From an uncultured Coriobacteriaceae bacterium (lineage in GTDB: Bacteria; Actinomycetota; Coriobacteriia; Coriobacteriales; Atopobiaceae), in contig CACXFF010000349.1 of NCBI GenBank assembly GCA_902766805.1, forward strand, positions 1 through 32,117: a stretch of 32,117 nt of DNA. The letters are read 5' to 3'. How positions within the stretch are numbered: the first letter of the stretch is position 1; every line of letters starts with the position of its first letter. This document shows, piece by piece, positions 208-26,176 of this stretch. The notes under the pieces are model-generated. The model was not told where the DNA came from. It saw only the letters and a list, made by a program, of their open reading frames with translations, and ran no database searches. Made by a program: the position numbers and the translations under genes.

Positions 208-263
208 GGGATTCCTTTCGGTTTGGGTTGATGGCACAACGGTTAACTATACGCCTGCCAAGG

Positions 264-611: not shown

Positions 612-621
612 GGTCTGTCTC

Positions 622-3152: not shown

Positions 3153-3259
3153 CCTGCCTCCTTGCCCTTGTCTGCCTAGAGTCGCGCGCGGGCGTGCGAC
3201 GTTTTCAGCATACCTTACCCGTTGGCTCGGACAAAAAATCAGTTCCGGCGTGCTCGCTC

Positions 3260-4444: not shown

Positions 4445-4505
4445 AGCGCTGCGCGTGCAGCCTGTATATCATACGCGAAAAGCCCCACCGACGAGGAAGG
4501 CGAGC

Positions 4506-5429: not shown

Positions 5430-5480
5430 GCCAGGTTTGTTGGCGTAGAGCCTTTGGCTTCTGGGTAACACGCGGTCGCA

Positions 5481-5816
5481 TCAGACCAGGTACAGGAGGG
5501 CTGCGTAGGCCACGAGGCCCGTGACCGCGCAGATCACCAACGATCCGCTCTTTTTGGCGACCACGGCCACCAGCAGCGCCGCGATCACGGGCTTCAGGGC
5601 GCCCCAAGGGTCAGCGGCGAAGGCGCCGGGCGTGAAGAGGTCGTTGGACACGAGCGCCGCGAACGCCGCGGGTGGGATGAGCGACAGCGCGTCGGTCACG
5701 GCTGGGGACAGCTCGCGGCCCTTCAGCACAAAAAGCGGTATGCAGCGGCAGGCGAGCATCGTCGCGCTGCAGGCGACGAGCAGGATGGCGAAGTCCGTGA
5801 ACGACATCGGCGTCAT
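5481..5816 (-). CDS. azlD: Branched-chain amino acid exporter small subunit AzlD
   Basis: 111 aa hydrophobic protein with a 4-nt overlap with the upstream azlC. Typical AzlD size and composition. Confidence 0.8.
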   Translation of the reverse strand: MTPMSFTDFAILLVACSATMLACRCIPLFVLKGRELSPAVTDALSLIPPAAFAALVSNDLFTPGAFAADPWGALKPVIAALLVAVVAKKSGSLVICAVTGLVAYAALLYLV

Positions 5817-6496: not shown

Positions 6497-6497
6497 G

Positions 6498-7157
6498 CTA
6501 GTCCACCATGCGTATCGACTCGATCACGGGCTGGTCCTGCGCCTCGATCGTGCCGAAATCGTCGACGGGCTTGGCGTTGGCGACGAGGGCGTCGATGACG
6601 TCCATGCCCGAGGTCACGTGCCCGAAGGCCGCGTACCGACCGTCGAACGAGGCGTTGTCCTCGGCGCAGATGAAGAACTGCGAGTCGGCCGAGTCATAGT
6701 CACGGCCGTTGCGGGCCATCGAGATCGTGCCACGCACGTGGCTGATGGTGTTGGGGTAGCCGTTGGCCGCGAACTCGCCCATGATGGTCTTGCCCGACCC
6801 GCCCTTGCCCGTTCCCGTGGGGTCGCCGCCTTGGACTAAGTCCTTTGTGATGCGGTGGAACGTGAGGCCGTCGTAGAAATGCGCCTCGGCCAACTCGGCG
6901 AAATTGGTCACCGTGACGGGCGCGATCAGGGCGTTGAGCTCCACGCTGATGTCGCCGTAGGACCTCACGCTGATGGTCGCGTGATGGATGCCCGCGGCGT
7001 ACGGAGAATCGGGCGTAGAGGCGTCCGTCGTGGCGGTGGTCGCCGCGCTTGTGGCCGCGCTCGTCGTGGCCTGCGCACCGCTGCAGGCGCCCAGCAGGAA
7101 GGCAAGGCCCGTCCCAAGGCCGGCACAGGCAAAGGCTCGACGAGTCAACGTAGGCAT
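6498..7157 (-). CDS. Cyclophilin-type peptidyl-prolyl cis-trans isomerase, predicted Tat-exported lipoprotein
   Basis: FHRITKDLVQGGDPTGTGKGG and FFICAEDNASFDGRYAAFG cyclophilin motifs. The N-terminus MPTLTRRAFACAGLGTGLAFLLGAC has a twin-arginine motif and an LLGAC lipobox. Confidence 0.85.
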   Translation of the reverse strand: MPTLTRRAFACAGLGTGLAFLLGACSGAQATTSAATSAATTATTDASTPDSPYAAGIHHATISVRSYGDISVELNALIAPVTVTNFAELAEAHFYDGLTFHRITKDLVQGGDPTGTGKGGSGKTIMGEFAANGYPNTISHVRGTISMARNGRDYDSADSQFFICAEDNASFDGRYAAFGHVTSGMDVIDALVANAKPVDDFGTIEAQDQPVIESIRMVD

Positions 7158-7176
7158 AGGTAACCCCTTTCAAAGA

Positions 7177-7194
7177 GAGCGCGAGGCCGCGCTC
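7177..7194 (-). terminator. Short GC hairpin downstream of the ATPase gene, possibly an intrinsic terminator
   Basis: GAGCGCG-aggc-CGCGCTC (7-bp stem), followed on the minus strand by TCTTTG. It lies between the ATPase stop (7255) and the PPIase RBS. Confidence 0.4.
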
Positions 7195-7254
7195 CGTCGA
7201 TTCGCACGAGAAACGACTATAGCGCAGCCTCGCTACGGACGTGTGTAGCAGCTT

Positions 7255-10145: not shown

Positions 10146-10527
10146 AAGCACGGGCACCCAAAGTACGCAAAACGCTACCCGTGCGACACCCGCCGTGCGC
10201 ACGGATACGGAAAGCGGAGTCTTGCGAAGTTTGGGGTGCGCACGGGTACGAAAAGTGAAGTGTTGCGACAACCGCCGTGCGCACAGGAAAGGAATCGTTA
10301 GTCGTGCGACAGCCGCCGTGCGCACGGGAAAGGAAAACGAAGCCTTGCGAAGGTCGGATGACGCACGGGTACGGAAAGTGAAGTCTTGCGGCAACCGCCG
10401 TGCGCACGGGAAAGGAATCGTTAGTCGTGCGACACCCAGCCGACGCACGGTAAAGGAATCGTTAGTCTTGCGACAACGCGCGACGCCCAAGGGCCGCATC
10501 CCGTGAAGTAAGACGTCCTTTGGGTGC
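10146..10527. repeat. Non-coding tandem array of about 9 degenerate 41-bp units
   Basis: TGCGCACGG/GACGCACGG anchors sit at 10196, 10237, 10278, 10319, 10360, 10401, 10442 and 10482, with a period of 41 (last interval 40). Unit consensus is TGCGCACGGG-(t/a)A(c/a)GGAA..AGTC(t/g)TGCGACAaCCGCCG. The array is bounded by a 10-bp inverted repeat, GCACCCAAAG (10154..10163) and CTTTGGGTGC (10518..10527). Confidence 0.85.
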
Positions 10528-10617: not shown

Positions 10618-11775
10618 TCAGAGGCCGCTGGCTGCGATGAGCTCGCAGACTTCGCGCAGGCGCTCGGGAGGCTGCACCAAAGCGAAGCGCACGTAGCCCT
10701 CGCCGTGCGGGCCGAAGCTCGCGCCCGGCGTTACGATCACGCCCGTCCGTTCCATCAGCTCCATGGCGAAGCCCAGCGAGTCCTCGCGCCCGTGGGGCAG
10801 CTTGGCCCAGACGAACATCGTGCCCTGGGCGTTGGGGCGCTCCCAGCCCGCGGCCACCAGGCCGTCGCAGAGCGCGTCACGGCGCTCCTGGTAGAGCGCG
10901 CATTGGGCGCGCACGGAATCCAAGGGCCAGGTGAGCGCTGCGATGGCGACGCGCTGCTGGGGCAGCGGCATGCCGAAGTCGATCTGGCTGTGCAGGCGCT
11001 TGAACGCCGCGATGACGTCCGGGCGTCCGACGAGGTACGAGATGCGCAGGCCCGTGACATTGAAGGACTTGGAGAGCGAGAAGAACTCCACGCCCACCTC
11101 GGCCGCGCCCTCGTAGGCCAAGAACGAGCCCCCTTGCGCGCCGTCGTAGATGATGTCGGAGTAGGCGTTGTCGTGCACGATGAGCAGGTCGTGCTCGCGG
11201 GCAAAGGCGATGAGCTCGCGGTAGAGCTCGGGGGTGCCGATCGACCCCACGGGGTTGGCGGGCAGTGACACCACCATGTAGCGGGCGGCGTCAGCGACCT
11301 CGGCGGGGATGTCCGAAACGCGTGGCACGAAGCCCGTCTCGCGGGAGAGCGGGTAGTACCAGGGGGTGGCCCCGGACAGCAGCACCGCGTTTTGGAAGAC
11401 CGGGTAGCAGGGGTCAGGCACCAGCACGGTGTCGCCCTCGTCGACGAGCGCGAGCGCGAGCATGCCCATGCCCTCCTGCGTGCCGTGCGCCGAGCACACC
11501 ATGTCGGGACTGACCTGCACGCCGAAGCGCCGCTCGTAGTAGGAGCAGACCGCCTGGAGCATTTCGGGCGTGTCCACGATGGCGTACTTCCAGCACTCGG
11601 GGTCGCGCGCCGCTTGGGCATAGGCCTCGACCAGGTGCGCGGGTGGCTCGAAGTCGGGCGTGCCGATGGACAGGTCTATGACCGCAAGGCCCTGTGCCTC
11701 GCGCTTCATGCGCAGCTCTTTGAGCGCGGCGAAAACCTCGCTCCCGAACCGGTCCAGCCTCGCCGAGAAATGCAT
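10618..11775 (-). CDS. PLP-dependent aminotransferase, class I/II fold
   Basis: 385 aa. LSIGTPDF near the N-terminus and the PLP-lysine motif FSLSKSFNVTGLRISY. Confidence 0.9.
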   Translation of the reverse strand: MHFSARLDRFGSEVFAALKELRMKREAQGLAVIDLSIGTPDFEPPAHLVEAYAQAARDPECWKYAIVDTPEMLQAVCSYYERRFGVQVSPDMVCSAHGTQEGMGMLALALVDEGDTVLVPDPCYPVFQNAVLLSGATPWYYPLSRETGFVPRVSDIPAEVADAARYMVVSLPANPVGSIGTPELYRELIAFAREHDLLIVHDNAYSDIIYDGAQGGSFLAYEGAAEVGVEFFSLSKSFNVTGLRISYLVGRPDVIAAFKRLHSQIDFGMPLPQQRVAIAALTWPLDSVRAQCALYQERRDALCDGLVAAGWERPNAQGTMFVWAKLPHGREDSLGFAMELMERTGVIVTPGASFGPHGEGYVRFALVQPPERLREVCELIAASGL

Positions 11776-11903
11776 GTCGTCCCCTCTCCGCGCCTCGCGA
11801 GCGCACCCGCGCGTCGCGGGGCCTTCCCTGCGCGCAACGCTTCCCTTCTACGGAGCACGAGTATGCACGACGTACGTTGCGGGCGTGTGTCGTACGGCCG
11901 TCC

Positions 11904-14024
11904 TCAGCGCACCGAGGCCAAGGCGAGGTAGTCGAGCTTCGCCTCGTCGTCGCGCACGGGCAGCCATTCGGTCGGGGCGTCGCGCACGTACCAGACGCCG
12001 TCGGCCCCCTCGTATCCGTGCTCGTTGTAGGCGGGCACGGCCACGCGTGCGGCGAGCTGGGCCTTCTGGTATTCGGTGAGCGGGGCGCCGATGGCGTCGG
12101 CGACCATCGCGCCAAGGTAGTTGGGGCTCGCGTCGCGCACCAGGTCGGCCGCCGGCGTACCCGCTATGTCGTAGTTGGCCCACAGGAAATAGACCGTCTG
12201 GTGGATGCGCTCCTCATGGTCCACCCACGCCTCGTCCTTGCCAAAGATCTCGTCGTTGTACCAGTAGGAGAAGTAGGGCTGGTGGTCGCCGAAGAAGAGC
12301 AGGATGACCGGGCGCTGCAGCTGCTCGAGCTGGCCGACGAACCACTGAAGGTCCTGGTCGGAAGCCTGAATGCAGGAGAGGTACTCGTTGAGCAGCGGGT
12401 TGAACTCCTCGTCATCGAGCCCGGCCGGGTGCACGTCGGTGAGGCGCGCGGCGGGGATGTTGCCGCGGTCGTAGCCGGAGTGGTTCTGCATCGTCACGTC
12501 GAACACGAACTGCGGTGCTGCATCCTGCTCCAGGAGCTTGAGGATCAGCTGGTAGGTGGCCTTGTCGGTCACGCCGTTGTGGAACCACGGGGCGCCGCCG
12601 AACGAGTTGATGTCCAGGAAGCTCTGGAAGCCCAGGGCCGGGTATACCGTTGCGCGGTTCCAGTTCTCGGGGGCGTTGGGGTGGATGGCCGTCGTGACGT
12701 AGCCCAGCTCGTCGAACTGCTTGGGCAGGGAGGCCATCTCGGAGAGGTCGTACATGGAATAGGGGAACTTGCCCGCGCCGACCGCCTGGAGCGACACGCC
12801 TGTGAGCGTCTCGAACTCGGTGTTGCAGGTGCTGCCGCCGTATACCGAGACGCCCAGGTTGCCGCGCTCGAGCGTGTGGGTCAGGCCCTTCAGGAAGCTG
12901 GGGCCCTCATAGCCCGCGCGCAGCCCGTCGAAGCGCGAGAAGTCGTCGAAGGTCTCGTTCATCACGATCACGACGCTTGGCTTGAGCTCGTCGAACTGCT
13001 GCGTGGAGGCCGCGCGCCGCTCGGCCGAGCCCGTGTCAAAGGCCTGCGCGTAGCTGGCCTGCAGCTCGCGCGCCCCCTCGTCGCTGTAGCCCTCGGGCAT
13101 GCGGATGGGCAGGTCGTGCAGCGCCGTGACGAAGCTCGGGAGCAGGCCCTGCGCCTTGTACGACAGCGGGGCGTGCTCGATCCAGTAGAGCATGGAGAGC
13201 TGCAGGTCGTTGGCATAGTCGGGCACGGTCACCAGCGCGTAGCCCGACCACGCGGTGAGCGCTGCGAGGAACACGCTGCACAGCACGCGGCCCCATACCG
13301 GCTCACTGCGCTCGGCCACGGGGTAGGCGTAGCTGAGGGCTGCCATGGCCAGCGAGGCGTATCCCAGGCCAATGAGCATGGGACTCGTGAGCGTGTAGGC
13401 ATAGTGGCCGCTCACGTTGGCGGCCGTGGTCAGCGCGAACAGGTCGCGCGGGAAGATGGGCTCGCCACGGAATTCGTATACGTAGTGCATGGCAGTCGCC
13501 GCTATCACACACAGCGCGACGCCTGGCAGGCCGCCCACGCCGCGCCTGCCGCACAGGAAATAGCCAAAGGCCACGATCACCGCGAGCATCGCGCACTCGA
13601 TGACCACGTAGTTCCACCGTATCAGACTCCACTCGGGGTTCCAGGGAATCTCGATCGCGAAGCGCAGGCAGCACACCGCCGCGCCCAGGACTAGCAGGTC
13701 GCGCAGGCGTTCGAGGGCCCCTGCCCGCGCCTGGCCCGCAATGAGCTGGCCTATGCGCTCGCGTTGCGTGACGAGGCCTGCGGCGCCTGCGCAGAGCGCG
13801 CATCCGATCACGACGTCGCCGAAAAGCCCCTCGAGTGCCCCGGTCGCGCCGAAGGCCAACGCCACCACGAGCGTGCACGCGCAGGCGCAGGCCCATGCGT
13901 AGCTGGAACGCAGCCGCAGAGCCGAGCGGCGTTTCGCCAGCAGCAACAGCGCGGCCACGACCGCGATGCCGACGATCGGCACGAGGATCACGGTGCTCGG
14001 AAGGGTCTCAAAGGAGTCATACAT
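11904..14024 (-). CDS. LTA synthase-family (sulfatase/alkaline-phosphatase fold) membrane protein, paralog 1
   Basis: 706 aa. A multi-TM N-terminal half is followed by an extracytoplasmic domain with VMNETFDDFS, GGSTCNTEFETLTG and TMQNHSGY motifs. Confidence 0.85.
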   Translation of the reverse strand: MYDSFETLPSTVILVPIVGIAVVAALLLLAKRRSALRLRSSYAWACACACTLVVALAFGATGALEGLFGDVVIGCALCAGAAGLVTQRERIGQLIAGQARAGALERLRDLLVLGAAVCCLRFAIEIPWNPEWSLIRWNYVVIECAMLAVIVAFGYFLCGRRGVGGLPGVALCVIAATAMHYVYEFRGEPIFPRDLFALTTAANVSGHYAYTLTSPMLIGLGYASLAMAALSYAYPVAERSEPVWGRVLCSVFLAALTAWSGYALVTVPDYANDLQLSMLYWIEHAPLSYKAQGLLPSFVTALHDLPIRMPEGYSDEGARELQASYAQAFDTGSAERRAASTQQFDELKPSVVIVMNETFDDFSRFDGLRAGYEGPSFLKGLTHTLERGNLGVSVYGGSTCNTEFETLTGVSLQAVGAGKFPYSMYDLSEMASLPKQFDELGYVTTAIHPNAPENWNRATVYPALGFQSFLDINSFGGAPWFHNGVTDKATYQLILKLLEQDAAPQFVFDVTMQNHSGYDRGNIPAARLTDVHPAGLDDEEFNPLLNEYLSCIQASDQDLQWFVGQLEQLQRPVILLFFGDHQPYFSYWYNDEIFGKDEAWVDHEERIHQTVYFLWANYDIAGTPAADLVRDASPNYLGAMVADAIGAPLTEYQKAQLAARVAVPAYNEHGYEGADGVWYVRDAPTEWLPVRDDEAKLDYLALASVR

Positions 14025-14084
14025 CGCTCGTCGTTCCTCTCGGGGGCGTTCGCCACGCTCGTGCGCGCCCGGTTGCCACCCCGT

Positions 14085-16025
14085 TCAGCCTAGCTCCTGC
14101 AGGCTGCCGAAGTTGAGGTAGTCCAATGTGTTCAGCTCGCTGCGCAGGGCCGTGTAGTCCGTCTCGCTTTCTTGCTCGTGCCAAAGGTAATCGCCGCCCA
14201 GATAGCCCATGAGGTTGATAGCGGGCAGCTCGGGGCGTGCGGCTAGCTTGGCCTTCTGCCAGTCGCTGAGCGGTGCCCCCGCAAGCTCGAGGGCGCGTGC
14301 CGCGAGCTGGCTGCAGGACAGCACGGCCCCGCCACCAAGACCGTCGCTCGCGGGGTCCTGTGGTACGGGCTGGGCACCCGCCACCGCATAGTTGGCCCAG
14401 ACCAGCCAGTTGGTGCGGTAGGCGCGCTCGGCGTGGGTCGGCTCGGTCTCGCGTGGGTGCAGCGCGTCGTTGATCATCCACGTGAACTCGGGCTGGTGGT
14501 CGCCAAAGAAGACGACGACCACACGTTCGTCGAGCTCGAGCAGCTGGCGCAAGAACCACTCCAGGTCGCGGTCCGAGGCTTCGATGCAGGCCAGGTACTC
14601 GTTGAGCGCGTCGTCGCTCGGCAGCTCGACGCCGGGTTTGGCCAGGCTCTCCAACGTGTAGCGGGTGAGCTCGGAGCTGGGGATGTTGCCTTGGTCGTAG
14701 CCCGAGTGGTTCTGCATGGTCACGTCCATCACGAGCTGCGGCCCGTCGCGGCGCAGCAGCTCGAGGGCCTTCTCGTAGGTGGCGCGGTCGGTCACGCCGC
14801 TGTGGTAGGTCGGGGCGCCCGGGAAGTCGTCGATGGAGAGGAACGCGTCGAAGCCCAGGTCACGGTAGACGTCGCTGCGGTTCCAGTTGGCCGCCAGGTT
14901 GGGATGCATGGCGTAGGTCTCGTAGCCCAGGGCGCCGAGCTGGCGGCCCAGGTTCTCGCAGGCGCTCAGGTCGTACATCTGGAAGGGGTACTTGCCGCCG
15001 CCAATGAAGGCGAGCGAGGCCCCGGTGAGGAATTCGAACTCGGTGTTGCAGGTGCCGCCGCCATAGGCCGAGACGGCCAACGCGCCGCGGTCGAGCAGCG
15101 TGCCGCGCAGCTCGTTGATTCCGCTCGTGAAGAAGCGCGGACCCTCGTAGCCGCAGCACAGCCCGCCCGCGTCGCTGCGAAAGAAGGCGGACAGGTCGGA
15201 GAAGGTCTCGTTCATGACCACGACGATGGAGGCGGGCTGCTCGCTGAACTGCCGCGCAGCAGCGCTGCGTTGGGCCGACGAACCGGGGCCCTCGTCATAG
15301 CTGCGCGCCATGCGCGCCTGCAGGTCCTGGGCGGCCTGGGTGTCATAGTCCTGCGGGGGGCGGATCTTCATGTCCTGCCGCGCAGCGAGGAAGGTGGGCA
15401 CGAAGCCCTGCGTGCGGTAGTTCTCGATGGGCGCCCAATAGTCCAGCTGCACGCCGTAGTCGCGCTGGTAGTCGGGCTCGCGCACGAGCCGCCAGGCACC
15501 CAGCGCGCAGGCGGCGCCCAGCAGGGTGCACAGCACGACGCTCGCGACCTTTGCCCACCCCTCGTGGCGCGTCGAGGGACGTATGGCCGCCAGACAGGCG
15601 ACGGCTCCCACGCAGGCCGCCACTCCCACGAGCACGGATAGGTCGGGAGTGTAGTCGTAGTTGCCCGCCACGGCAGCCGCGGTGCGAAGGGCCAGAAGGT
15701 CGCTGGGCATGAAGGCGGTGCCCTTGAACTTCATGACGTAGTGCTGTCCCAGGCCCGCGGCCAGGCATAGGAACGGCACCGGGATGGCCCAAACGCCGCG
15801 ACGCTGGCCCAGCAGCGTGAGTGCGAGCAGCAAAAGCCCGACCATCGCAAGCTCTAGGCCCAAGAAGACCGTGGGCGTCACGAGGAACGCCAGCGAGGAG
15901 TAGGGCAGCTCCATGGCGGCCACGCTCAGCCAGGTGGCGAGCGCGAGGCGGCCCAGGTTGGCCCCTACGCGCACGGCCGTGCTGGCCTCCTGCGCCGGCG
16001 GACGCATGTGGGCGGCTTGGGACAT
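14085..16025 (-). CDS. LTA synthase-family membrane protein, paralog 2
   Basis: 646 aa with the same architecture (VMNETFSDLS, GGGTCNTEFEFLTG, TMQNHSGY). Roughly half the catalytic-domain residues are identical to paralog 1 (eyeball alignment). Confidence 0.85.
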   Translation of the reverse strand: MSQAAHMRPPAQEASTAVRVGANLGRLALATWLSVAAMELPYSSLAFLVTPTVFLGLELAMVGLLLLALTLLGQRRGVWAIPVPFLCLAAGLGQHYVMKFKGTAFMPSDLLALRTAAAVAGNYDYTPDLSVLVGVAACVGAVACLAAIRPSTRHEGWAKVASVVLCTLLGAACALGAWRLVREPDYQRDYGVQLDYWAPIENYRTQGFVPTFLAARQDMKIRPPQDYDTQAAQDLQARMARSYDEGPGSSAQRSAAARQFSEQPASIVVVMNETFSDLSAFFRSDAGGLCCGYEGPRFFTSGINELRGTLLDRGALAVSAYGGGTCNTEFEFLTGASLAFIGGGKYPFQMYDLSACENLGRQLGALGYETYAMHPNLAANWNRSDVYRDLGFDAFLSIDDFPGAPTYHSGVTDRATYEKALELLRRDGPQLVMDVTMQNHSGYDQGNIPSSELTRYTLESLAKPGVELPSDDALNEYLACIEASDRDLEWFLRQLLELDERVVVVFFGDHQPEFTWMINDALHPRETEPTHAERAYRTNWLVWANYAVAGAQPVPQDPASDGLGGGAVLSCSQLAARALELAGAPLSDWQKAKLAARPELPAINLMGYLGGDYLWHEQESETDYTALRSELNTLDYLNFGSLQELG

Positions 16026-16651
16026 CAGACGCGCGTGCCTTTCTCCAAGAAGTCATGCACGCGGCGGAGCAGGACCGTCATCTTGCCTGCGAACTCGTCG
16101 GCGTTGTAGATCACCGAGAAGTGCGGGTGGCCAGACCAAGAGGCGATGAGCCGGTCGTCCACGGCCGCCGCCTGCTCTGGCGTCTCCTTGCGAGTGGCGT
16201 TGTTCTCCAGCGTGTAGGCGCTCAGGGCGCCCTTGGCCGTGCTTACCAGGTGGAAGACCGCATCGTAGCGCGCGTAGATCTCCTCTTCCGTCATGCCCAG
16301 GTCCTCCAGCAGCCGCTCGAAACCCTCGGGCGTCATGTAGCCCTTGTTGTCCATCACGCCGCGGTCCTGGATGATGACGAGCTCCTCGTCGTCCATGCGC
16401 TCGGCCGCATGGCGGAAGGCGTCTTCTTTGGTCAGCTGCATCTCGCAGACGCTGCGCTGGAAGTCGTCGTAGGAGCGGCAGGTCCAGGGCGCGACGCCGC
16501 CCGAGATGAGCTCTGTGGCCACCTCGGGCACGAAAAGCAGCTTGTAGCCGCGCGACTCTAGGTCCGAGCGCAGCCAAGCGAGGGCCGTGGTCTTGCCCGA
16601 GCACGGGCCTCCGGTGATCACGATCGTGCGAATGCGAGGACTTGCTGCCAT
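16025..16651 (-). CDS. Stand-alone P-loop NTPase (AAA_28-like)
   Basis: Walker A ITGGPCSGKTT. The ATG at 16651 is preceded by GGAAGGGGAAG; the track start at 16678 is an alternative. The stop overlaps the ltaS-paralog-2 ATG by 1 nt (TGATG at 16023..16027). It is a paralog of the N-terminal half of the 26204..27307 product. Confidence 0.8.
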   Translation of the reverse strand: MAASPRIRTIVITGGPCSGKTTALAWLRSDLESRGYKLLFVPEVATELISGGVAPWTCRSYDDFQRSVCEMQLTKEDAFRHAAERMDDEELVIIQDRGVMDNKGYMTPEGFERLLEDLGMTEEEIYARYDAVFHLVSTAKGALSAYTLENNATRKETPEQAAAVDDRLIASWSGHPHFSVIYNADEFAGKMTVLLRRVHDFLEKGTRV

Positions 16652-16765
16652 GCTCTTCCCCTTCCTTGGCGACATCACACGCTACGTTATCAGACAGAAT
16701 ACCAAGTCCTGCCAGCTCGTCGGTGTACAGTTGTACGTACGCGGACAAGCGACGAGGAGGAAACC

Positions 16766-17806
16766 ATGGCCGTGCACACCATTCCCTATGCCACTCTGCC
16801 GAGCGGTCAGGACGTCTATCGTTACGTGCTGAGCGATCGGACCGGCATGACTGCCTCACTCACCGACCTGGGGGCTACGCTGCTCTCGCTCGAGGTGCCG
16901 AGCGCTCAGGGCACGCTCACCGACGTGGTCCTGGGCTATGCCGGCGTGCAGGACTACCTGGTCAACGACCCCAACCTGGGCGCGACCGTCGGGCGCAATG
17001 CCAACCGCATCGCCCGCGGGCGTTTCGAGCTCGCGGGGCGCGCCTGCCAGCTGGCCTGCAACGAGTACGGCAACTCCCTGCACAGCGGCCCCGACATGTG
17101 GAAGACGCGCGTCTGGGAGGCACAGGTCCACGACGATGCCGTGACCTTCCTGCTCGAGAGCCCCGATGGCGACCAGGGCTTCCCCGGAGACGTGGCGGTA
17201 CGCGTGACCTACGCGCTTGACGACGGCGCGCTGGTCATCTCCTACGAGGCCGAGGCCCGCCAGACCACCGTCATCAACCTCACCAACCACAGCTACTTCA
17301 ACCTCAACGGACATGCTGCGGGTGACGTGGGCGGCCACACGCTGCAGCTCTTTGCCGACAGCTGGCTGCCCATCGATGAGCATGGCATCCCCACGGGCGA
17401 GGTCGCGCGCGTGGGCCGCACCCCCATGGACTTCCGCGAGCCGTGGGCGCTGGCGGAGGGCCTCGACAGCGCCTTCCCCGCGCTGCGGGCTGCCGGCGGC
17501 TACGACCACAACTATTGCGTGGGAGAGCGCGCTGGGGAGCTGCGGCGGGTCGCCAGGCTCGTGGGCGACGCCTCGTACATCGCCATGGACGTGGAGACAG
17601 ACCTGCCAGGGCTGCAGCTCTACACGGCCAACCAGCTCCAGGAGTGCGTCGGCAAGGACGGGGCGACCTACGGACGTCACCAAGCCGTGTGCCTGGAGAC
17701 GCAGTATTGGCCCGACGCCGTGAACCACGCCGACTGGGACCAGCCCGTCTTTGGGCCGGACAGGCCGTATCACTCGGTCACGGCCTACCGCTTTGGCCTG
17801 GCCTGA
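16766..17806 (+). CDS. galM: Aldose 1-epimerase (galactose mutarotase)
   Basis: 346 aa. GRNANRIARGRF, SLHSG and NLTNHSYFNL signatures. A GAGGAGGA RBS lies upstream. Confidence 0.9.
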   Translation: MAVHTIPYATLPSGQDVYRYVLSDRTGMTASLTDLGATLLSLEVPSAQGTLTDVVLGYAGVQDYLVNDPNLGATVGRNANRIARGRFELAGRACQLACNEYGNSLHSGPDMWKTRVWEAQVHDDAVTFLLESPDGDQGFPGDVAVRVTYALDDGALVISYEAEARQTTVINLTNHSYFNLNGHAAGDVGGHTLQLFADSWLPIDEHGIPTGEVARVGRTPMDFREPWALAEGLDSAFPALRAAGGYDHNYCVGERAGELRRVARLVGDASYIAMDVETDLPGLQLYTANQLQECVGKDGATYGRHQAVCLETQYWPDAVNHADWDQPVFGPDRPYHSVTAYRFGLA

Positions 17807-17834
17807 GGCACGTAGGCCACAGATGAGGGCGTCC

Positions 17835-17878
17835 GGGAGGGGGACGGGTCCTGAGGGCCCGCTCCCCTCTTTCTTTGG
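17835..17878 (+). terminator. Probable intrinsic terminator after galM
   Basis: Imperfect GC-rich inverted repeat GGGAGGGGGACGGG...CCCGCTCCCCTC followed by TTTCTTT. Confidence 0.4.
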
Positions 17879-17976
17879 CGTGCTGCCGCGGCCCCAGCCG
17901 GCTCATGCGGGGCTTCCCACGGCTAGCCCTGGGTTTAAATAACTATCCGTTATGGACAGTGATTGCCGATAGGCAT

Positions 17977-18005
17977 TTGTTATTGATGCTCCTGCGTCGT
18001 AGGCT
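17977..18005 (+). promoter_or_regulatory. Putative promoter for the small-protein/beta-helix pair
   Basis: TTGTTA-N17-TAGGCT in a locally AT-rich stretch, about 27 nt upstream of the 18032 ATG. Confidence 0.3.
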
Positions 18006-18031
18006 TAGTTCAACACACGAGAGGAGACCCG

Positions 18032-18247
18032 ATGACTCAGCCGACGGAAGCCTCCCTGCGCGAGGCAGGGTGTACCGACACGTTCATCCGCGAGTTCGTG
18101 AACTGCTGGGACGCAGGCGGGCAGGACCTGTGTCTGCGCCTACTGCGTCTGCACCGCTGCGAGCTGCTCGAGGAGCTGCACAAAGCCCAGCGCCCCCTGG
18201 ACGTCCTGGACTGGATCATCAGAGACTGCGAGGAGAATCATGTCTAA
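18032..18247 (+). CDS. Small (71 aa) Cys-containing helical protein of unknown function
   Basis: GAGGAG RBS 5 nt upstream and high GC3. It has an 8-nt overlap (ATGTCTAA) with the next gene. Sequence: ...GCTDTFIREFVNCWDAGGQDLCLRLLRLHRCELLEELHKAQRPLDVLDWIIRDCE. Confidence 0.6.
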   Translation: MTQPTEASLREAGCTDTFIREFVNCWDAGGQDLCLRLLRLHRCELLEELHKAQRPLDVLDWIIRDCEENHV

Positions 18248-19115
18248 GACCATCATCTTGGGCCGGCGCTTCGACGAAGAGCGCGCCTTGTTCGGGTGCG
18301 AGGACCTCAACTTGGAAGGCGTTGCCTTCGCCGGTCCTGCCGACGGCGAGTCCGCGCTCAAGGAGTGCCGTTCGTTGCAGGTGCGCGACACGCTATTTGA
18401 CCTGCGCTATCCGCTCTGGCACGACCAAGGCGTGAGCCTTGTGCGCTGCACGCTCACTGAGGGCTGCCGCGCCGCGCTGTGGTACTCGCGCGACGTGAGC
18501 GTGAGCGACAGCCGCCTGATGGGCATCAAGGCGCTGCGCGAGTGCGACAACGTGTCGATCGATGCGAGCGAGGTGGTCTCCCCCGAGTTTGGCTGGAACT
18601 GCCGGGGCGTGCAGGTGGACGGCGGCTCCATCAGCTCGGAATACGCCTTCATGCACGCCCGCGACCTCAGCCTGCACGACGTGGACTTCTGCGGCAAGTA
18701 CTCGTTCCAGTACACGGAGCACGTGCGCGTGGAGGGCGGATTCTTCGATACCAAAGACGCCTTTTGGCACGCGAGCGACGTGGTGGTGCGCAACGCCACG
18801 CTCAAGGGCGAGTACCTCGGCTGGTACTCCCGCAACCTCACGCTCATCAACTGCCGCATCGAGGGCACCCAGCCCTTCGTCCACTGCGAGGGGCTCAAGC
18901 TGGTGAACTGCGAGATGGTGGGCTGCGACCTGGCCTTCGAGGCCTGCGACGTGCAGGCGGACGTGCGCGGCCACATCGACTCCATCCGCGACCCGCGCTC
19001 GGGCCTGATCGTGGCCGACTCGGTCGGGGAGCTCGTTCATGACACGCAACGGCCCTTTGGCGCTCAGCTCGTCATCCGCGAAGACCCTTTTGATTGCAGC
19101 TGCGCCTGCGCCTAA
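18240..19115 (+). CDS. Right-handed beta-helix repeat protein, DUF3737-like (assignment from recollection)
   Basis: 291 aa made of about 22-aa repeats of the type (D/N)V.(L/V)....(L/F)(G/E). No signal peptide. C-terminal CSCACA. Confidence 0.7.
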   Translation: MSKTIILGRRFDEERALFGCEDLNLEGVAFAGPADGESALKECRSLQVRDTLFDLRYPLWHDQGVSLVRCTLTEGCRAALWYSRDVSVSDSRLMGIKALRECDNVSIDASEVVSPEFGWNCRGVQVDGGSISSEYAFMHARDLSLHDVDFCGKYSFQYTEHVRVEGGFFDTKDAFWHASDVVVRNATLKGEYLGWYSRNLTLINCRIEGTQPFVHCEGLKLVNCEMVGCDLAFEACDVQADVRGHIDSIRDPRSGLIVADSVGELVHDTQRPFGAQLVIREDPFDCSCACA

Positions 19116-19138
19116 ACCCCAAAGCTCAACCTCAACAT

Positions 19139-19179
19139 GAAGGTGGCGGACTTGTGCCAGGTACAAGTCCGCCACCTTC
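19139..19179. terminator. Bidirectional terminator hairpin between convergent genes
   Basis: Perfect 17-bp inverted repeat GAAGGTGGCGGACTTGT-gccaggt-ACAAGTCCGCCACCTTC. The flanking T-tracts are weak. Confidence 0.65.
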
Positions 19180-19195
19180 AATCTTTACCTGAGGC

Positions 19196-20311
19196 TTAGG
19201 CTAGGCAGGAGTCCAGGCCGGCGATGACCGCGTCGCGGTCCATGTGACGGCCGATGATGACGATCTTGGTCTGGCGGTCGCCCACCTCGGGATCCCACTC
19301 GTCCATGATCTCGGGGTTCTGCTCGATGATCTCGCGCTTGGTTTCCTCGGGAGCGCTGGCGACGAACAGGCCGTTCTCCTGCAGGCGGATCTGGTGGCCG
19401 GACTGCTCGAAGACGTAGGCCATGTCGTAGTTGTCCTTGAACCAGACCAGGCCCTTGGCGCGGATGACCGTGTCGGGCCAGTCCTGCGCGAACTTCTCCA
19501 GCTTGGCCATCGAGAACGGCGCGCGGCGCTGGTAGACGAAGGTCTCGATCTCGTACTCGAGGACCTCGGGGTCCTCGTGCTCCTCGGGGTGCTCCATGGC
19601 CTCGATCCAGGCGGCGGAGCCGTAGGCGCGGTCGAAGTCGAAGCGCCCGGTGTCGAGCAGCTCGTCGAGGTCTACCTCGCCCTGGACGCACTCCACGATC
19701 TTGGCTTCCTTCTGCAGGCTGCGCACCAGCGCCTTGAGCTCGTCGACCTGCTCGGGCGTGACGCAGTCGGTCTTGTTGAGCAGCAGCGTGGTGCAGAATT
19801 CGATCTGCTGGACGAGCAGGCTCTCGATGTCCTCCTCGTCGATGTCGTCCTTGACCAGCGCCTTGCCGCCATTGAACTCGTCGTACATGCGGGCGCAGTC
19901 GACCACGGCCACGATGTTGTCGAGCACGATGTTGGTGCCTCGCTCGGCCTGCTCCTTGCAGAAGTTGTCGATCGTGAAGGCGATGGGGATGGGCTCGCAG
20001 ATGCCGGAGGCCTCGATGATGATGTAGTCGAACTTGCCCGACTCCGCCAGGTCGGTCAGCTGGCGCGCGAGGTCGTCGGCCAGCGTGCAGCAGATGCAGC
20101 CGTTGGACAGCGGCACGAGCGTGTTGTCGACCTGGGTGACCACGCCGGCCTTCTCGATGAGGGCAGCGTCGACGTTGACCTCGCCGATGTCGTTGACGAT
20201 GACGGCGGCGCGGACGCCGCGGTCATTGCCGAGGATGTGGTTGAGCAGGGTCGTCTTGCCCGCCCCGAGATAGCCCGTGATGAGGACGATCTTGACGGTG
20301 TTTTCAGCCAT
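19196..20311 (-). CDS. COG0523-family (CobW/ZigA/YjiA-like) metallochaperone GTPase
   Basis: The ATG at 20311 (MAENTVKIVLITGYLGAGKTTLLN) is preceded by GAAAGGA. It has the GCICC metal motif, an acidic/His linker (EHPEEHEDPE) and a CobW C-terminal domain. The track ORF extends 228 nt further upstream without support. Confidence 0.9.
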   Translation of the reverse strand: MAENTVKIVLITGYLGAGKTTLLNHILGNDRGVRAAVIVNDIGEVNVDAALIEKAGVVTQVDNTLVPLSNGCICCTLADDLARQLTDLAESGKFDYIIIEASGICEPIPIAFTIDNFCKEQAERGTNIVLDNIVAVVDCARMYDEFNGGKALVKDDIDEEDIESLLVQQIEFCTTLLLNKTDCVTPEQVDELKALVRSLQKEAKIVECVQGEVDLDELLDTGRFDFDRAYGSAAWIEAMEHPEEHEDPEVLEYEIETFVYQRRAPFSMAKLEKFAQDWPDTVIRAKGLVWFKDNYDMAYVFEQSGHQIRLQENGLFVASAPEETKREIIEQNPEIMDEWDPEVGDRQTKIVIIGRHMDRDAVIAGLDSCLA

Positions 20312-20460: not shown

Positions 20461-20489
20461 TTCGAAATAATGCCTGGCTTAAGTAGAAT
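20461..20489 (+). promoter_or_regulatory. Putative promoter of the dlt operon
   Basis: TTCGAA-N17-TAGAAT in the only AT-rich patch of the divergent intergenic region, about 85 nt upstream of the 20573 ATG. Confidence 0.3.
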
Positions 20490-20572: not shown

Positions 20573-20743
20573 ATGAACTCCTCCACCGATCAGAACAAGA
20601 TCTCCGATTCGGCCCGCAAGGTCGTGGCCGCCATCCTGTCGTGCAGCCTGGCGCTGGGCTCGCTGTCCCTTGCGGCCTGCGGCGGCAACTCACAGGAGCA
20701 GGACAACTGCTATGGCGAGGACATGCCGGTCGTCAACGAGTAA
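20573..20743 (+). CDS. 56-aa predicted mini-lipoprotein (below the ORF-track size cut-off)
   Basis: AGAGG RBS 7 nt upstream. MNSSTDQNKISDSARKVVAAILSCSLALGSLSLAAC|GGNSQEQDNCYGEDMPVVNE has an LAAC lipobox. About 90% GC3. The stop is 9 nt before the dltA start. Confidence 0.55.
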   Translation: MNSSTDQNKISDSARKVVAAILSCSLALGSLSLAACGGNSQEQDNCYGEDMPVVNE

Positions 20744-20752: not shown

Positions 20753-22327
20753 TTGTTTGGTAGCAAGTACCTCGATGCGGTAGAGCTTCAGGCGCAGCGC
20801 GTGCCCGACCGCCTGGTCTTCTTCAACTCCGCGGGCGAGCGCCTCAGCTATGCCGAGCTCTCCGCGCGCTCCTCTGCCCTGGCCTGCTGGCTGGCCGACG
20901 AGCGCAACCTCACCCCGGGCGTGCCGGTGGTGCTCTATGGCCACAAAGCTCCCGAGATGCTCGTGGGCATCTTCGCCTGCGCCAAGGCGGGCCACCCCTA
21001 TGCCCCCATCGACACGGTCTATCCTGCCGACCGCGTGGCCAACATCATCGAGCAGATCGGTGACACCCTCGTGCTCGACACCGCGGGCAGTTTCGACTGG
21101 GGCGCGCTGGCGCTGGACGACGCGCCGCGCGTGCTGGGTCCCGAGCAGATCCAGCAGCTGTGCGCGCAGGCCCCGAACGCCGAGGACGTCGCCGCCCTGC
21201 CGGGCAAACGTCCCCAGGACACCTTCTACATCATCTTCACCTCCGGCTCGACCGGCACGCCCAAGGGCGTAGAGGTGAGCTCGGAGTGCGTGGACGGCTT
21301 CCTGGCGTGGCTGAGCGAGGACTACGCCTTTGCCGAGGAGGGTCACCGCGTGTGGTTCAACCGCGCCGCCTACTCCTTTGACCTGTAGGTGACCGACCTG
21401 GTCTACGCTCCCGCGCACGGCGACACCTGCTTCGCTCTGGCCGAGGAGGCCGAGGGCAGCCTGGCGCTCACCTTCCAGGCGCTGGCGGAGAGCGGCATGA
21501 CGGATTGGGTCTCCACCCCGTCGTTTTTGGACCAATGCCTGGCCGATTCCTCCTTTGGCTCCGAGCTGCTCCCCCAGCTCAAGCGCATGCTGTTCGTGGG
21601 CGAGACCCTGCGCCCCGCCACCGTGCGCGGCGCCAAAGAGCGTTTTGCGGGGATTCACGTGTACAACGGCTATGGCCCCACGGAGTCCACGGACTTCGTG
21701 TCGCTGTGCGAGATCGACGACGAGATGCTTGCCGACGACAAGCCCCTGCCCGTGGGCTACGCCATGCCGGGCGTGCGCCTGGCGGTGCTCGACCCCGAGA
21801 CCCTCGAGGAGAAGCCCGTCGGCGAGCCCGGCGAGCTGTTCATCGTGGGCCACACGGTGGCCAAGGGCTACTACAAGCGCCCTGACCTCACGCAGGCGGC
21901 CTTCCACTCCTGTCCCGAGCGAGTGGCTCAGGGATCCAAATCCTATCGCACCGGCGACGAGGTCACGCTCTCACCGAGCGGCCTGTACTATTTCCACGGC
22001 CGTCTGGACCTGCAGATCAAGCTGCACGGCTTCCGCATCGAGCTGGGCGACATCGAGGCGTGCCTCTGCGCGCTGCCACAGGTGCACATGGCCTGCGTCC
22101 TGCCCGTCGTGCGCGACGGCGTGATCCACCACCTCTGTGCCTGCGTGGTGCCGGACGCGGCGACCGAGCTGCGCGGCCTGCGCCTCTCACGCCAGCTCAA
22201 GGAGGGCCTGGCCGAGACGCTGCCCGCCTACATGATACCGACGCAGTTCAAGTATCTGGACGTCCTGCCGCTCAACCAGAACGGCAAGGCGGATCGCAAG
22301 GCGCTCGCAGCGCTCATCGAGGCGTAA
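20753..22327 (+). pseudogene. dltA: D-alanine--D-alanyl carrier protein ligase DltA, interrupted by an in-frame TAG at 21386..21388
   Basis: Track ORFs 20753..21388 and 21389..22327 are one frame. Adenylation motifs are IIFTSGSTGTPKG, YSFDL*VTDL, YGPTEST, YRTGD and NGKADRK. The TAG sits where DltA orthologs have Ser (FSFDLSV). TTG start with an AAGGA RBS. Confidence 0.85.
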
Positions 22328-22336: not shown

Positions 22337-23500
22337 GTGGATTTCTATGTGGAGCCGGCGTTTTTCGTCCTGAGCGGGGGCATCGCGCTGGTCGGAGCGC
22401 TGCTCGGCCTGTTCGAACGCAGGCAGGCGACCTTTGGCCTCGTCGCGTCGCTTGCGATGCTGGGGCTGCTCTTCTTCCGCTCGGTGCCGGCGCTCGTCTA
22501 TGCGGCGCTCTACCTGGCGTTCTCGTTGGGCCTCTACCGCTGGGTGCTTGGCCTGTTCGAGCGTCACGACCCACGGGCCGTGACGCTCTATCGCGTCGCG
22601 CTGGGCCTGCAGATAGCGCCGCTCGCCCTCTACAAGGTGGGCGTGCTCTTCACGCCTGACTTCCCGGGCTTCTTGGGCATCTCCTACATCACCTTCAAGG
22701 CGGTGCAGGCGCTCATAGAGGTGCGCGACGGGCTCATACATGACATGAGCCTCACGGAGTACCTGTACTTCCTCTCCTTCTTTCCCACCTTCACGTCCGG
22801 CCCGATCCTGCGCAGCAGGGCCTTTGTGGACAATGTGCGCGAGCAGCCCTCGCGCGACGTCTACCTGGGCAGGCTCTATCGCGGCCTGGGCTGGTTCGTG
22901 TTGGGCGCGCTGTACAAGTTCGTCTTCTCGGCGCTCGCGCAGTGGGCGCTGTGGTTCGTGCCGAGTGTGCTGGACTCCCCGGTCCTCGACTGGCTGGCCA
23001 AGGCCCTCTTCTTTGGGCTCGACCTGTTCTTCGACTTCGCCGGCTACTCCGACATGGCGATGGGCCTGGGCCTCGTCCTGGGCATCGAGGTGCCGCGCAA
23101 CTTCCACATGCCCTTCGCCGCGACCGACATCAAGGAGTTCTGGGACCGCTGGCACATCACGCTGTCCACCTGGCTGCGCGACTTCGTCTTCATGCGCTTC
23201 ACCCGCTTCGCCCTGGCGCGCAAGCTCTTCGCCAACCGTCAAGTGACGGCCTGCGTGGGCTTCGTGCTCAACATGGCGCTCATGGGCGTGTGGCACGGCA
23301 TCACCCTGGACTACATCGTCTACGGCCTGTACCACGGCCTGCTGCTGGCAGGCTGGCACTACTTCCAGCAGACTTCCAAGTTCTACAAGGCGCAGCGCAA
23401 GCAGCGTTGGTTCAAGATCGTGAGCTGGGCCTTCACGATGGTCGCCGTCTTCTTTGGCTTCGCGCTGTTCGGCGGCTACGTCTTTGGCCCCGCCCGCTAG
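22337..23500 (+). CDS. dltB: D-alanyl transfer MBOAT protein DltB
   Basis: 387 aa polytopic protein. FFDFAGYSDMA, FWDRWHITLSTWLRD and the MBOAT His in MGVWHG. GTG start. Confidence 0.9.
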   Translation: MDFYVEPAFFVLSGGIALVGALLGLFERRQATFGLVASLAMLGLLFFRSVPALVYAALYLAFSLGLYRWVLGLFERHDPRAVTLYRVALGLQIAPLALYKVGVLFTPDFPGFLGISYITFKAVQALIEVRDGLIHDMSLTEYLYFLSFFPTFTSGPILRSRAFVDNVREQPSRDVYLGRLYRGLGWFVLGALYKFVFSALAQWALWFVPSVLDSPVLDWLAKALFFGLDLFFDFAGYSDMAMGLGLVLGIEVPRNFHMPFAATDIKEFWDRWHITLSTWLRDFVFMRFTRFALARKLFANRQVTACVGFVLNMALMGVWHGITLDYIVYGLYHGLLLAGWHYFQQTSKFYKAQRKQRWFKIVSWAFTMVAVFFGFALFGGYVFGPAR

Positions 23501-23531: not shown

Positions 23532-23771
23532 ATGACCGAACTAGAGGAAAAGATCATCAACCTCGTCGTGGACATCTCCGGCGAGGAGGACATCGCCGAG
23601 GAGCGTGACCTGGACCTGTTCGAGGAGCGCGTGCTCGACTCCCTGGCCGCCATCGAGCTGCTCGTGGCCATCCAGGAGGAGTTCGGCGTGTCCATCGCCC
23701 CCACGGAGCTCGAGCGCGAGGAGATGAACACCATCAACAAGATCATCGCGCGCGTGTCCGAGCGCCTCTAG
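23532..23771 (+). CDS. dltC: D-alanyl carrier protein DltC
   Basis: 79 aa acidic protein with the phosphopantetheine Ser in VLDSLAAIELL. AAGGA RBS. The track ORF 23454..23771 is over-extended. Confidence 0.9.
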   Translation: MTELEEKIINLVVDISGEEDIAEERDLDLFEERVLDSLAAIELLVAIQEEFGVSIAPTELEREEMNTINKIIARVSERL

Positions 23772-23784: not shown

Positions 23785-24948
23785 GTGAACGCTCAGACCC
23801 AAAAGAAGCGCCTCGCGGCCCTGCTGGGCGGTGTCGCGGTCGCGGCTGCCGTGGTGGGCGCCTGCGGCGTGGCGCTGCCCGCCCAGGCAAGCGTCTCCCG
23901 GGCGCGTGACTACGGCTACGTGTATTCGGGCGCCAAGTCCACGAGCGTGGACTTCGTGCGGGCCAACCTCGACGACGAGACCCTGCTCGTGCTCGGCTCG
24001 TCGGAGTTCTCCACCCCGGCGAGCACGGTGCCCCAGGTGCCTGCCGCCGTCATGGGCGGACACAACTACGGGCTGCGCCTGATGCTCGTGGGAGAGGCCT
24101 TCGACCAGTGCCTCTGGGACGCCATGGCCCTCGGCGCGCTTGCCGACGGCGGTCTGCCGCACGACCGCGTGGCCCTGATCGTGGGCTTGGGCATGTTCAC
24201 CGACGGCGGCCTGGACAACGCGACCTTCCAAGAGCGCTTCTCGTTCCCCCTCTACCGCGGCTTCATGGCCAACCCGGCGCTGCCCGCCGAGCTCAAGCAG
24301 AAGCTGCGCGCTCGCCTGGCGGAACAGGGCGTGGACGAAGCCACGCTGCGCGCGGGCCAGCCGGGTGACCCGATCGCCGCCATCGACGGCGCCGTGCTGG
24401 GTTGGCAGAACGACCTGCGCCTGCGCCAACAGCTCATGGAAGTGCGCGACAAGAGCCTGGAGCGCGCCCAGGAGCCGGCCGTGGCGCCCGACTGGGACGC
24501 CCTCATGGCCGACGCCTATGCGACCGCGCAGCAGATGAGCACCACCAACGACTGGGGCGCGGAGGACAAGTTCTACACCACGCAGCTCGCGCCGGCGCTC
24601 GACTCGCTTGCGGGCGCACGCGCTGGGGAGACCTACAGCAACACGCCCGAATACGATGACCTCGAGCTGTTCCTGCAGGTCTGTGACGCCTGCGGCGTGG
24701 CGCCGCTCGTGATGATCGAGCCGGTGATGGGTCCCTACTACGACCACATCGGCATTGACGCCGCCACCCGTGCGTCGGCCTACGACAGGATCCGCAACGT
24801 AGTGTGGGCGCACCCCAATGCGCGGCTGGTAGACTACAGCGATCGCGAGTACGAACCGTACTTCCTTTTCGACATCGTGCATTTCGGCTGGACGGGCTGG
24901 ATCGAGGCGCAGCACGCGCTCTACGACTTCGGCACGGAAGGAGCGTGA
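23785..24948 (+). CDS. dltD: D-alanyl-lipoteichoic acid biosynthesis protein DltD
   Basis: 387 aa with an N-terminal anchor and the SGNH-like LVLGSSEF catalytic motif. Its position after dltC fits. Confidence 0.85.
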   Translation: MNAQTQKKRLAALLGGVAVAAAVVGACGVALPAQASVSRARDYGYVYSGAKSTSVDFVRANLDDETLLVLGSSEFSTPASTVPQVPAAVMGGHNYGLRLMLVGEAFDQCLWDAMALGALADGGLPHDRVALIVGLGMFTDGGLDNATFQERFSFPLYRGFMANPALPAELKQKLRARLAEQGVDEATLRAGQPGDPIAAIDGAVLGWQNDLRLRQQLMEVRDKSLERAQEPAVAPDWDALMADAYATAQQMSTTNDWGAEDKFYTTQLAPALDSLAGARAGETYSNTPEYDDLELFLQVCDACGVAPLVMIEPVMGPYYDHIGIDAATRASAYDRIRNVVWAHPNARLVDYSDREYEPYFLFDIVHFGWTGWIEAQHALYDFGTEGA

Positions 24949-24951: not shown

Positions 24952-25131
24952 ATGGCACGCACGCGCAAGCTCAGCGCACGGCAGCGCTACGATGCTTGGC
25001 TGGAGGCGCACCCTGCCCTCGCCTGCCTCATCGTGGGCGCCAGCGTGGCGCTGGCCCTGATCGGCATCTTCGCCTTTGTGACGTTCTCGGGCTTTGGCGC
25101 CTCGGCAGAGTTCATCTACAACCAGTTCTAG
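24952..25131 (+). CDS. dltX: DltX-like small membrane protein (59 aa, below the ORF-track size cut-off)
   Basis: GGAAGGAG RBS 8 nt upstream. MARTRKLSARQRYDAWLEAHPALACLIVGASVALALIGIFAFVTFSGFGASAEFIYNQF has one TM helix and a C-terminal FIYNQF, matching the DltX FIYNEF-type tail. High GC3. Confidence 0.75.
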   Translation: MARTRKLSARQRYDAWLEAHPALACLIVGASVALALIGIFAFVTFSGFGASAEFIYNQF

Positions 25132-25141: not shown

Positions 25142-26176
25142 ATGGACGGCTACGAAGACTACGGAAACTACGGAGACACGGACCGCTCACCGTACGGGTC
25201 AGACCAGAGCATCCGCCTGACCAGTCGTGAAGACCTGCGGCGCCAGGCGGACGCACGCGATGATACGGCGTACGCAGGTTCTGACATGCGGCGGGAGCGC
25301 AGCCATGACGGCGGGACCCACGATCCCCACGCTCGTCATCGCTCCTCGGAGCGCGGCCGCACGCGTCCTGCACGCAGGCGACGTGGGATTCCCGTGCCCG
25401 CAGCCGTCGTGGCAGTCGTGCTCTGCGCCGGCCTTGCGGCGCTCGTGACCTTCTTTGTGATGCGGCCTCAGGTCGCAGACGCCCAGAAGCAGGCGCGCGA
25501 CGCCAGCAACCAGGTCACGCAGCTCACGGTGGAGAACAAGCAGCTCCAGGAGCAGCTCACCCTGGCTCAGCAACAGGCCGATGCCGCGAAGACGAGCGCC
25601 TCGCAGTCCGGCTCCTCGAGCTCTGCCAACTCCTCTACCGCGCCCCAGACGGACAACAGCTCACAGACGCAGTCCTCGGGCGCCGGCCAGGGCGTCGAGA
25701 GCCCGTGGATCAAGGACGGCAAGTTCAGCACGGGCGATGCGACTCTCGACAACGAGGTCAAGGAGTTCTGCGACGGCAAGGTCAATACGTCGATGGCGCT
25801 CGAGGACGCCGCGCTCGAGGTCTACAAGGGCGTTGCGTGGGCTGACTACGTGGAACGCGCGGAGGCTCAGCACCCCTCGGGGGCCGACTGGCGCCTGCGC
25901 TTCGCACGGCAGTTCTACGAGAACAACTGCTCGGGCAACTGCTACGAGTTCGCGCCCTTCCTCGCCTACTGCCTGCGCTACCTCGGCTATTCGGACGCCA
26001 TCGCCGAAGGCTGCCTCATCGAGCAACAGAGCGGCAACTGGGGCGACCACGGCATCGTCTTCGTCACCAACACCGACGGGCGCAAGTGCCTGTGCGACAC
26101 TGCGCGCGGCACGAACGGCTGGATGCTCGACGCAGACTCCTACAATCTCACCATACAGGACTTCGAAAACGCCTAA
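25142..26176 (+). CDS. Membrane-anchored protein with a coiled-coil, a Ser/Gln-rich linker and a C-terminal transglutaminase-like (Cys-His-Asp) domain (putative)
   Basis: The ATG at 25142 follows GGAGGG. TM helix PVPAAVVAVVLCAGLAALVTFFV. The C-terminal GNCYEFAPFLAYCLRYLGY...GDHGIVFV...CDTA resembles the papain-like transglutaminase core. Confidence 0.65.
   Translation: MDGYEDYGNYGDTDRSPYGSDQSIRLTSREDLRRQADARDDTAYAGSDMRRERSHDGGTHDPHARHRSSERGRTRPARRRRGIPVPAAVVAVVLCAGLAALVTFFVMRPQVADAQKQARDASNQVTQLTVENKQLQEQLTLAQQQADAAKTSASQSGSSSSANSSTAPQTDNSSQTQSSGAGQGVESPWIKDGKFSTGDATLDNEVKEFCDGKVNTSMALEDAALEVYKGVAWADYVERAEAQHPSGADWRLRFARQFYENNCSGNCYEFAPFLAYCLRYLGYSDAIAEGCLIEQQSGNWGDHGIVFVTNTDGRKCLCDTARGTNGWMLDADSYNLTIQDFENA

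Follow-up and report, generated by a model that had tools for sequence, protein, structure and literature searches.

How is one to understand an amber codon in the middle of dltA, in an operon whose other genes are whole? The question is posed by a single contig of 32,117 bp (66.7% G+C), all of which was analyzed and which I will refer to as the window. At positions 21380-21394 it reads GAC CTG TAG GTG ACC, interrupting the protein in the context ...NRAAYSFDL, stop, VTDLVYAP... A first-pass annotation took the gene to be one frame split by this TAG and nothing else, and it saw three possible explanations: an inactivation of very recent date, an error of sequencing or assembly, or a stop codon tolerated by means of read-through or re-initiation.

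Mechanical calling of open reading frames yields two ORFs, of 211 aa with a TTG start and of 312 aa with a GTG start, and not the single ORF, start to stop, of an uninterrupted gene. Read in one frame, 20753-22327 comprises 524 sense codons and a lone internal stop, at codon 212, just as the annotation had read it. When compared to profiles of the DltA family, the two halves fall on consecutive positions: 5-198 and 207-501 of 505 in NF003417, and 3-196 and 206-501 of 504 in TIGR01734. The Pfam AMP-binding match is similarly divided (2-189, then 229-384) and is followed by AMP-binding_C. Both ORFs are pieces of one DltA, and an annotation of the contig should flag dltA as a possible pseudogene or a possible error, not enter it as two proteins. 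The features of the region are collected in Table 1.

Table 1. Features in and around the dlt cluster, with positions given in the numbering of the window.
Feature	Position	Strand	Basis
Candidate sigma-70-like promoter	20462..20489	+	TCGAAA-16-TAGAAT, 9/12 matches; consensus match alone
orf56, first small ORF of the cluster, 56 aa, lipoprotein-like signal (...LSLAAC/GG...)	20573..20743	+	Translation
dltA, 5' part, 211 codons and TAG	20753..21388	+	TTG start after AAGGA; A3 TSGSTGTPKG, FDL of A4 (stop in place of S)
In-frame amber TAG for Ser212 (TCG)	21386..21388	+	Private C-to-A at 21387
dltA, 3' part, 312 codons and TAA	21389..22327	+	Motifs A5 NGYGPTE, A7 YRTGD, A8 GRLDLQIKLHGFRIELGDIE, A10 NGKADR
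dltB (MBOAT), intact, ends at TAG	22337..23500	+	TIGR04091, 392 bits vs 375, positions 2-379/380; PF03062
dltC, D-alanyl carrier protein, 79 aa, intact, ends at TAG	23532..23771	+	NF003464, 73 bits vs 68
dltD, intact	23785..24948	+	TIGR04092, 203 bits vs 150; PF04914, 217 bits
DltX-like small membrane protein, 59 aa, ends ...EFIYNQF, stop	24952..25131	+	Motif, size and position only
orf344, 344 aa, co-directional, directly after the DltX-like ORF	25142..26176	+	Gene calls in conspecifics

With its roughly 500 aa and its core motifs A3, A4, A5, A7, A8 and A10, the joined frame describes a stand-alone adenylation enzyme. The preservation of these motifs on both sides of the stop, remarked upon in the first-pass annotation, is evident in the frame itself, in the alignment of homologues and in comparison with structures, where the DltA chains in PDB match at an E-value of about 1e-100. 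In all the core motifs, and in the position of the gene directly 5' of dltB, dltC and dltD, the window resembles the solved DltA proteins of the dltABCD(X) pathway (3E7W, 3DHV, 3FCC). It differs from known DltA in the break at the serine of motif A4, and also in that even the intact protein of the same species scores below the curated NCBIfam cut-offs for DltA. That protein (P0121, 524 aa, from the 90%-identity cluster of the best match), 99.2% identical to the joined frame of the window, reaches 447.7 against a cut-off of 476 for NF003417 and 432.5 against 559.85 for TIGR01734, while the two halves from the window score 149 + 277 bits and 138 + 274 bits, respectively, again below the curated cut-offs. 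These two DltA families are nonetheless the best-scoring ones for both halves and for P0121, and the generic adenylation-domain model TIGR01733 is passed (340 against a cut-off of 317). The low scores account for the fact that several of the homologues bear only the name "amino acid adenylation domain-containing protein". By its motifs, its structural homologues and its operon context, the gene is best regarded as DltA in function and, formally, as a divergent member of a Coriobacteriia type; the activation of D-alanine and the loading of DltC are predicted from homology to solved DltA and from the operon. A minor peculiarity of P0121 is a valine (MLFVGE) at the place where, in the alignment, B. 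cereus DltA has Cys269 (FLFCGE).

The genes are arranged in the order orf56, dltA, dltB, dltC, dltD, the DltX-like ORF and orf344. The operon thus comprises an MBOAT protein, a carrier protein and DltD along with DltA, and the order is identical at all conspecific loci. The 79-aa dltC is called as a gene in conspecifics, and an identical protein is encoded on 14 contigs. The annotation had described dltB, dltC, dltD and dltX as undamaged, and this holds for dltB, dltC and dltD, which are full length and score above their cut-offs. If, however, the small ORF upstream of dltA was what was meant by dltX, the identification lacks support: that ORF (20573-20743) has no DltX motif and finds no DltX match in Pfam or NCBIfam even at E<=10. 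A better candidate lies at the other end. The ORF at 24952-25131 encodes a hydrophobic stretch and a C-terminal EFIYNQF, and exactly the same protein is found on 22 contigs; it has no match in Pfam or NCBIfam. DltX itself is a protein of about 45-60 aa with a single transmembrane helix, encoded within the dlt operon. Its functionally critical C-terminal motif is FIYNEF (PMC13653941). In this lineage, then, the DltX-like ORF follows dltD, unlike known dlt operons, where it precedes dltA, a point of practical use for annotation.

The remaining members of the cluster are less readily placed. The exact orf56 protein occurs on 23 contigs, and its gene is directly 5' of dltA at every locus examined; it may be an accessory of the dlt operon specific to the lineage. 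The mature part of the protein would come to only about 21 residues after a lipobox-like LAAC, and no family matches it. The orf344 protein, which has no significant Pfam match, may be part of the dlt transcription unit. Near the cluster are two genes of the sulfatase family (PF00884), which I take to be LtaS-like, and a gene for a phosphopantetheinyl transferase of the ACPS family (PF01648).

The amber codon replaces the serine of adenylation core motif A4 (FDxS), and the description of this serine as conserved proved well founded. The position is occupied by serine throughout an alignment of 14 homologues and in 119 of the 119 homologues retrieved by protein search (50-99% identity), always within FD[LVM]S. 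Its aligned counterparts in the solved structures are Ser198 in B. subtilis DltA (3E7W) and Ser199 in B. cereus DltA (3DHV/3FCC), in both cases within the motif FSFDLSV, and the A4 motif of the window also aligns with FDxS of the adenylation domains of gramicidin synthetase. Apart from the window's own 312-aa fragment, the homologues are all undisrupted: 118 of them are 512-545 aa in length and one is 478 aa, covering 89% of the query. The best named homologues are proteins from metagenome-assembled genomes of Atopobiaceae and Eggerthellaceae, with identities of 57-66%. On the strength of named homologues with identities of 59-66%, the organism is placed as Atopobiaceae-like.

Closer relatives permit the comparison to be made at the level of the codon. 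P0121, with serine at position 212, occurs on five contigs, each from a different sample, and further conspecific contigs were found by way of the protein P0122, by scanning JGI metagenomes for a pattern and by looking for exact copies of the upstream small ORF. The set available at codon 212 consists of ten independent contigs from ten samples (L082-L088 and L101-L103), with nucleotide identities to the window of 97.3-99.4% over the stretches compared; L083 falls to 95.7% over a longer span that takes in flanking sequence outside dltA. The samples are ERZ28614353, ERZ27280418, ERZ920288, ERZ1029110, ERZ1029114, ERZ27256863, ERZ28615068, ERZ27280032, ERZ931398 and JGI Ga0326513. All ten contigs carry TCG, and the A at 21387 is confined to the window. 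In L001, which is more distant (87% nucleotide identity), the codon is TCC. Since TCG is present in every conspecific contig, the lesion amounts to a single C-to-A transversion at 21387, the change that the annotation had predicted. The refuting condition named in the annotation, the same TAG in related genomes amid decayed motifs, gave a negative outcome: the TAG is in no relative, and the adenylation motifs are all preserved. Exact-sequence look-ups in the collection found the 312-aa fragment, DltB and DltD of the window on no other contig, and a scan of the genome collection with the DltA protein returned no close relative, the best match being 43% identical and most of the matches unrelated adenylation enzymes.

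How old is the stop allele? In a comparison limited at first to five conspecific contigs, five positions in dltA looked specific to the window. Once further contigs were added, three of the four changes other than TAG proved to be shared: 20947A is common to the window, L100, L101 and L102, 21171C to the window, L103 and L104, and 21436T to the window, L087, L088, L101 and L102. Because each is shared with some conspecific contigs, these three are standing polymorphisms that recombine in the population. Only 21783C is, like 21387A, confined to the window. On these alignments the nonsense allele sits at a tip of the genealogy and is the youngest change in dltA. The lineage-specific changes, synonymous to non-synonymous, number 2/2 in dltA, 6/2 in dltB and 2/1 in dltD, too few for a test of relaxed selection.

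The credibility of a single base depends on the quality of the contig that carries it. Alignment of the window with the conspecific scaffold L082 runs for 20,944 bp without a gap and shows 176 mismatches, and the remaining 10 kb were aligned to L089, which is that scaffold's other end, and to another four contigs. The only indels in that part are 3 nt, in frame, within the gene for a cyclophilin-type prolyl isomerase, a single base between genes and variation in a tandem repeat that is likewise intergenic, and all the genes within 1-10.7 kb have full-length domain matches. Nowhere else in the 32 kb does a gene show an interruption or a frameshift when compared to the conspecific scaffolds. Where two or more conspecific contigs could be compared, a span of approximately 17 kb, there are 89 SNPs specific to the window (53 synonymous, 30 non-synonymous, 5 intergenic and 1 nonsense), 65 of them transitions and 24 transversions, with C>A and G>T together accounting for only 10. 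Such a pattern is what selection leaves of real divergence between strains, and it is not that of random error. Given the observed mutation spectrum, about 2.7% of random coding substitutions create stops, and mutation alone, scaled to the 53 synonymous changes, would be expected to yield about 4.7 nonsense changes, as compared to the one observed. Statistically, there is nothing unusual in a single nonsense change among 84 coding differences specific to the lineage.

Of the explanations that accept the TAG and would leave the gene in working order or long dead, none fits these observations well. That TAG is a sense codon, whether through a reassigned code or pyrrolysine, has nothing in its favor beyond the in-frame TAG itself. 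Of the 29 genes in the window, 12 end in TAG, 10 in TGA and 7 in TAA, TAG being the commonest terminator, and among them dltB and dltC stop at TAG just where their family models end. There is no second in-frame TAG among the window genes, conspecifics use a serine codon at the site, and the window contains neither a tRNA gene, cognate or otherwise, nor any match to an Rfam family. With TAG a normal terminator, I regard recoding as ruled out, its chances being negligible. It is very unlikely, too, that the TAG is real but tolerated, by suppressor-tRNA read-through, near-cognate decoding or re-initiation at the GTG with assembly of the fragments, an option that the annotation had allowed and that is now disfavored. 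The GTG does adjoin the stop, as had been noted, both halves keep all their motifs, and a suppressor tRNA may lie elsewhere in the genome, beyond the window. But the GTG is merely the ancestral codon for Val213, present in all relatives, and the 25 nt before it (CGCCGCCTACTCCTTTGACCTGTAG) contain nothing resembling a Shine-Dalgarno element, unlike the real starts of the cluster, all seven of which have one: AGAGG for orf56, and one of AAGGA, AAGGGG, AAAGGA, AGGAG, GGAAGGAG and GCGGAGGGA for each of dltA, dltB, dltC, dltD, the DltX-like ORF and orf344. Complementation between the fragments seems improbable since the break falls within the large N-terminal subdomain, at motif A4, and not at the domain hinge. 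A strong suppressor would be costly where TAG is the ordinary terminator of so many genes, and, the TAG not being conserved, programmed read-through can be rejected. An old pseudogene, surviving in a lineage that gave up D-alanylation, is scarcely worth entertaining and may likewise be considered ruled out: no relative has the TAG, dltA has no further lesion and no other sign of decay, and dltB, dltC and dltD are intact.

The choice comes down to a real mutation or a wrong base, the two that stand from the original list with recent inactivation in the lead. The A at 21387 may be an error of sequencing, assembly or consensus, hiding a real TCG and a working dltA; I consider this the less likely of the two, yet a serious contender. 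It would explain a private singleton in one assembly where ten conspecific contigs have C, a change that strikes an invariant residue of a gene otherwise under purifying selection, and the lack of relaxation elsewhere in the operon. C-to-A changes are, moreover, a known class of artefact, the signature of oxidative damage. The contig shows no further sign of error, however: it has no frameshift and no second interrupted gene, and its other differences have a natural spectrum and an excess of synonymous changes. An error that happened to make a stop would be rare and unlucky. Because the contig is clean, positions where a substitution makes a stop are few and nonsense polymorphisms are expected at about this frequency, I favor the real mutation and infer that the base call is probably correct: a very recent loss of function in a strain or sub-population. 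Single-strain nonsense mutations are common. That the amber allele is, in addition, under selection, as an off-switch for D-alanylation in a sub-population that could revert from TAG back to TCG, strikes me as improbable. If it were so, the advantage might lie in escape from a phage or binding factor that recognizes D-alanylated teichoic acid, or in a saving of cost, and the community would contain a simple, revertible on/off polymorphism of surface charge.

A real and recent loss of function would have the following course. A C-to-A transversion at 21387 would, very recently and in the strain or sub-population from which the contig came, have turned TCG for Ser212 into amber. Translation would end after 211 residues, giving a fragment that keeps the P-loop (A3) and the FD of A4 and lacks everything in A5-A10: NGYGPTE, YRTGD, the hinge, the C-terminal subdomain and the catalytic lysine of A10. 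From what is established of adenylate-forming enzymes, a fragment of this kind should be inactive, unable to form D-alanyl-AMP or to load DltC. The downstream piece of 312 codons has neither a ribosome-binding site nor a P-loop. In the absence of DltA, the intact DltB, DltC, DltD and DltX-like proteins would have no D-alanyl-DltC as substrate, and the expression of dltBCD might be lowered through polarity. The predicted outcome, provided that no second dltA or suppressor tRNA lies elsewhere in the genome, is that D-alanyl esters would be lost from teichoic acids, making the surface more negative and the cell more sensitive to cationic peptides.

There is precedent for natural lesions of this sort. 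Field isolates of Listeria monocytogenes with dlt lesions exhibit sensitivity to nisin, a more negative surface and reduced virulence (PMC7574537); the lesions are a deletion of the promoter and 5' end of dltA and missense mutations in dltB and dltD (PMC7574537). Those alleles resemble the present one as strain-specific lesions in an otherwise conserved dlt operon, and they differ from it in that they come from cultured isolates with measured phenotypes, whereas the nonsense SNP is known from one assembled contig. Provided that the base call is real, one would expect the strain to be without D-alanyl esters and to withstand cationic antimicrobial peptides and bacteriocins less well, a strain-level phenotype of relevance to anyone culturing or modeling the organism. 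The feature nevertheless comes down to a base error or to a private nonsense SNP of the ordinary sort; it represents no novel type of system and leaves the general picture unchanged, loss-of-function alleles of dlt having already been documented in natural isolates.

Some further observations were made in the course of comparing the contigs. Between a gene for an ArsR-type regulator and one for an aminotransferase, at 10182-10477, lies an imperfect intergenic tandem repeat, which may be described as 7.2 copies with a period of about 41 nt or as 2.3 copies of 123 nt at 86% match. Most of its units contain GTGCGCAC; it varies by indels among conspecific contigs and has no Rfam match. Substitutions specific to the window are dense in two places, 13014-13095, within the LtaS-like PF00884 gene at 11904-14024 on the minus strand, and 25653-25673, within orf344, and roughly half or more of them are non-synonymous. 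Both clusters have the look of hypervariable loops in envelope-related proteins or of short tracts of recombination.

Upstream of cobW, the conspecific contig L083 (ERZ27280418 k141_227307, 108 kb) has in its positions 1-8400 a neighborhood different from that of the window at 10753-19200: a peptide deformylase, an esterase and a DEAD helicase, as compared to DUF3737, an aldose epimerase and the two sulfatase-family genes. The difference indicates a rearrangement or the boundary of an island just upstream of the dlt cluster. Downstream of dlt, a regulator of the LysR family that is a single gene of 305 aa in L082, L083 and the window is called as two pieces, of 68 and 224 aa, in L084 (16552-17417; ERZ920288 scaffold_3611), and is another instance within the same species of a gene disrupted in a single assembly.
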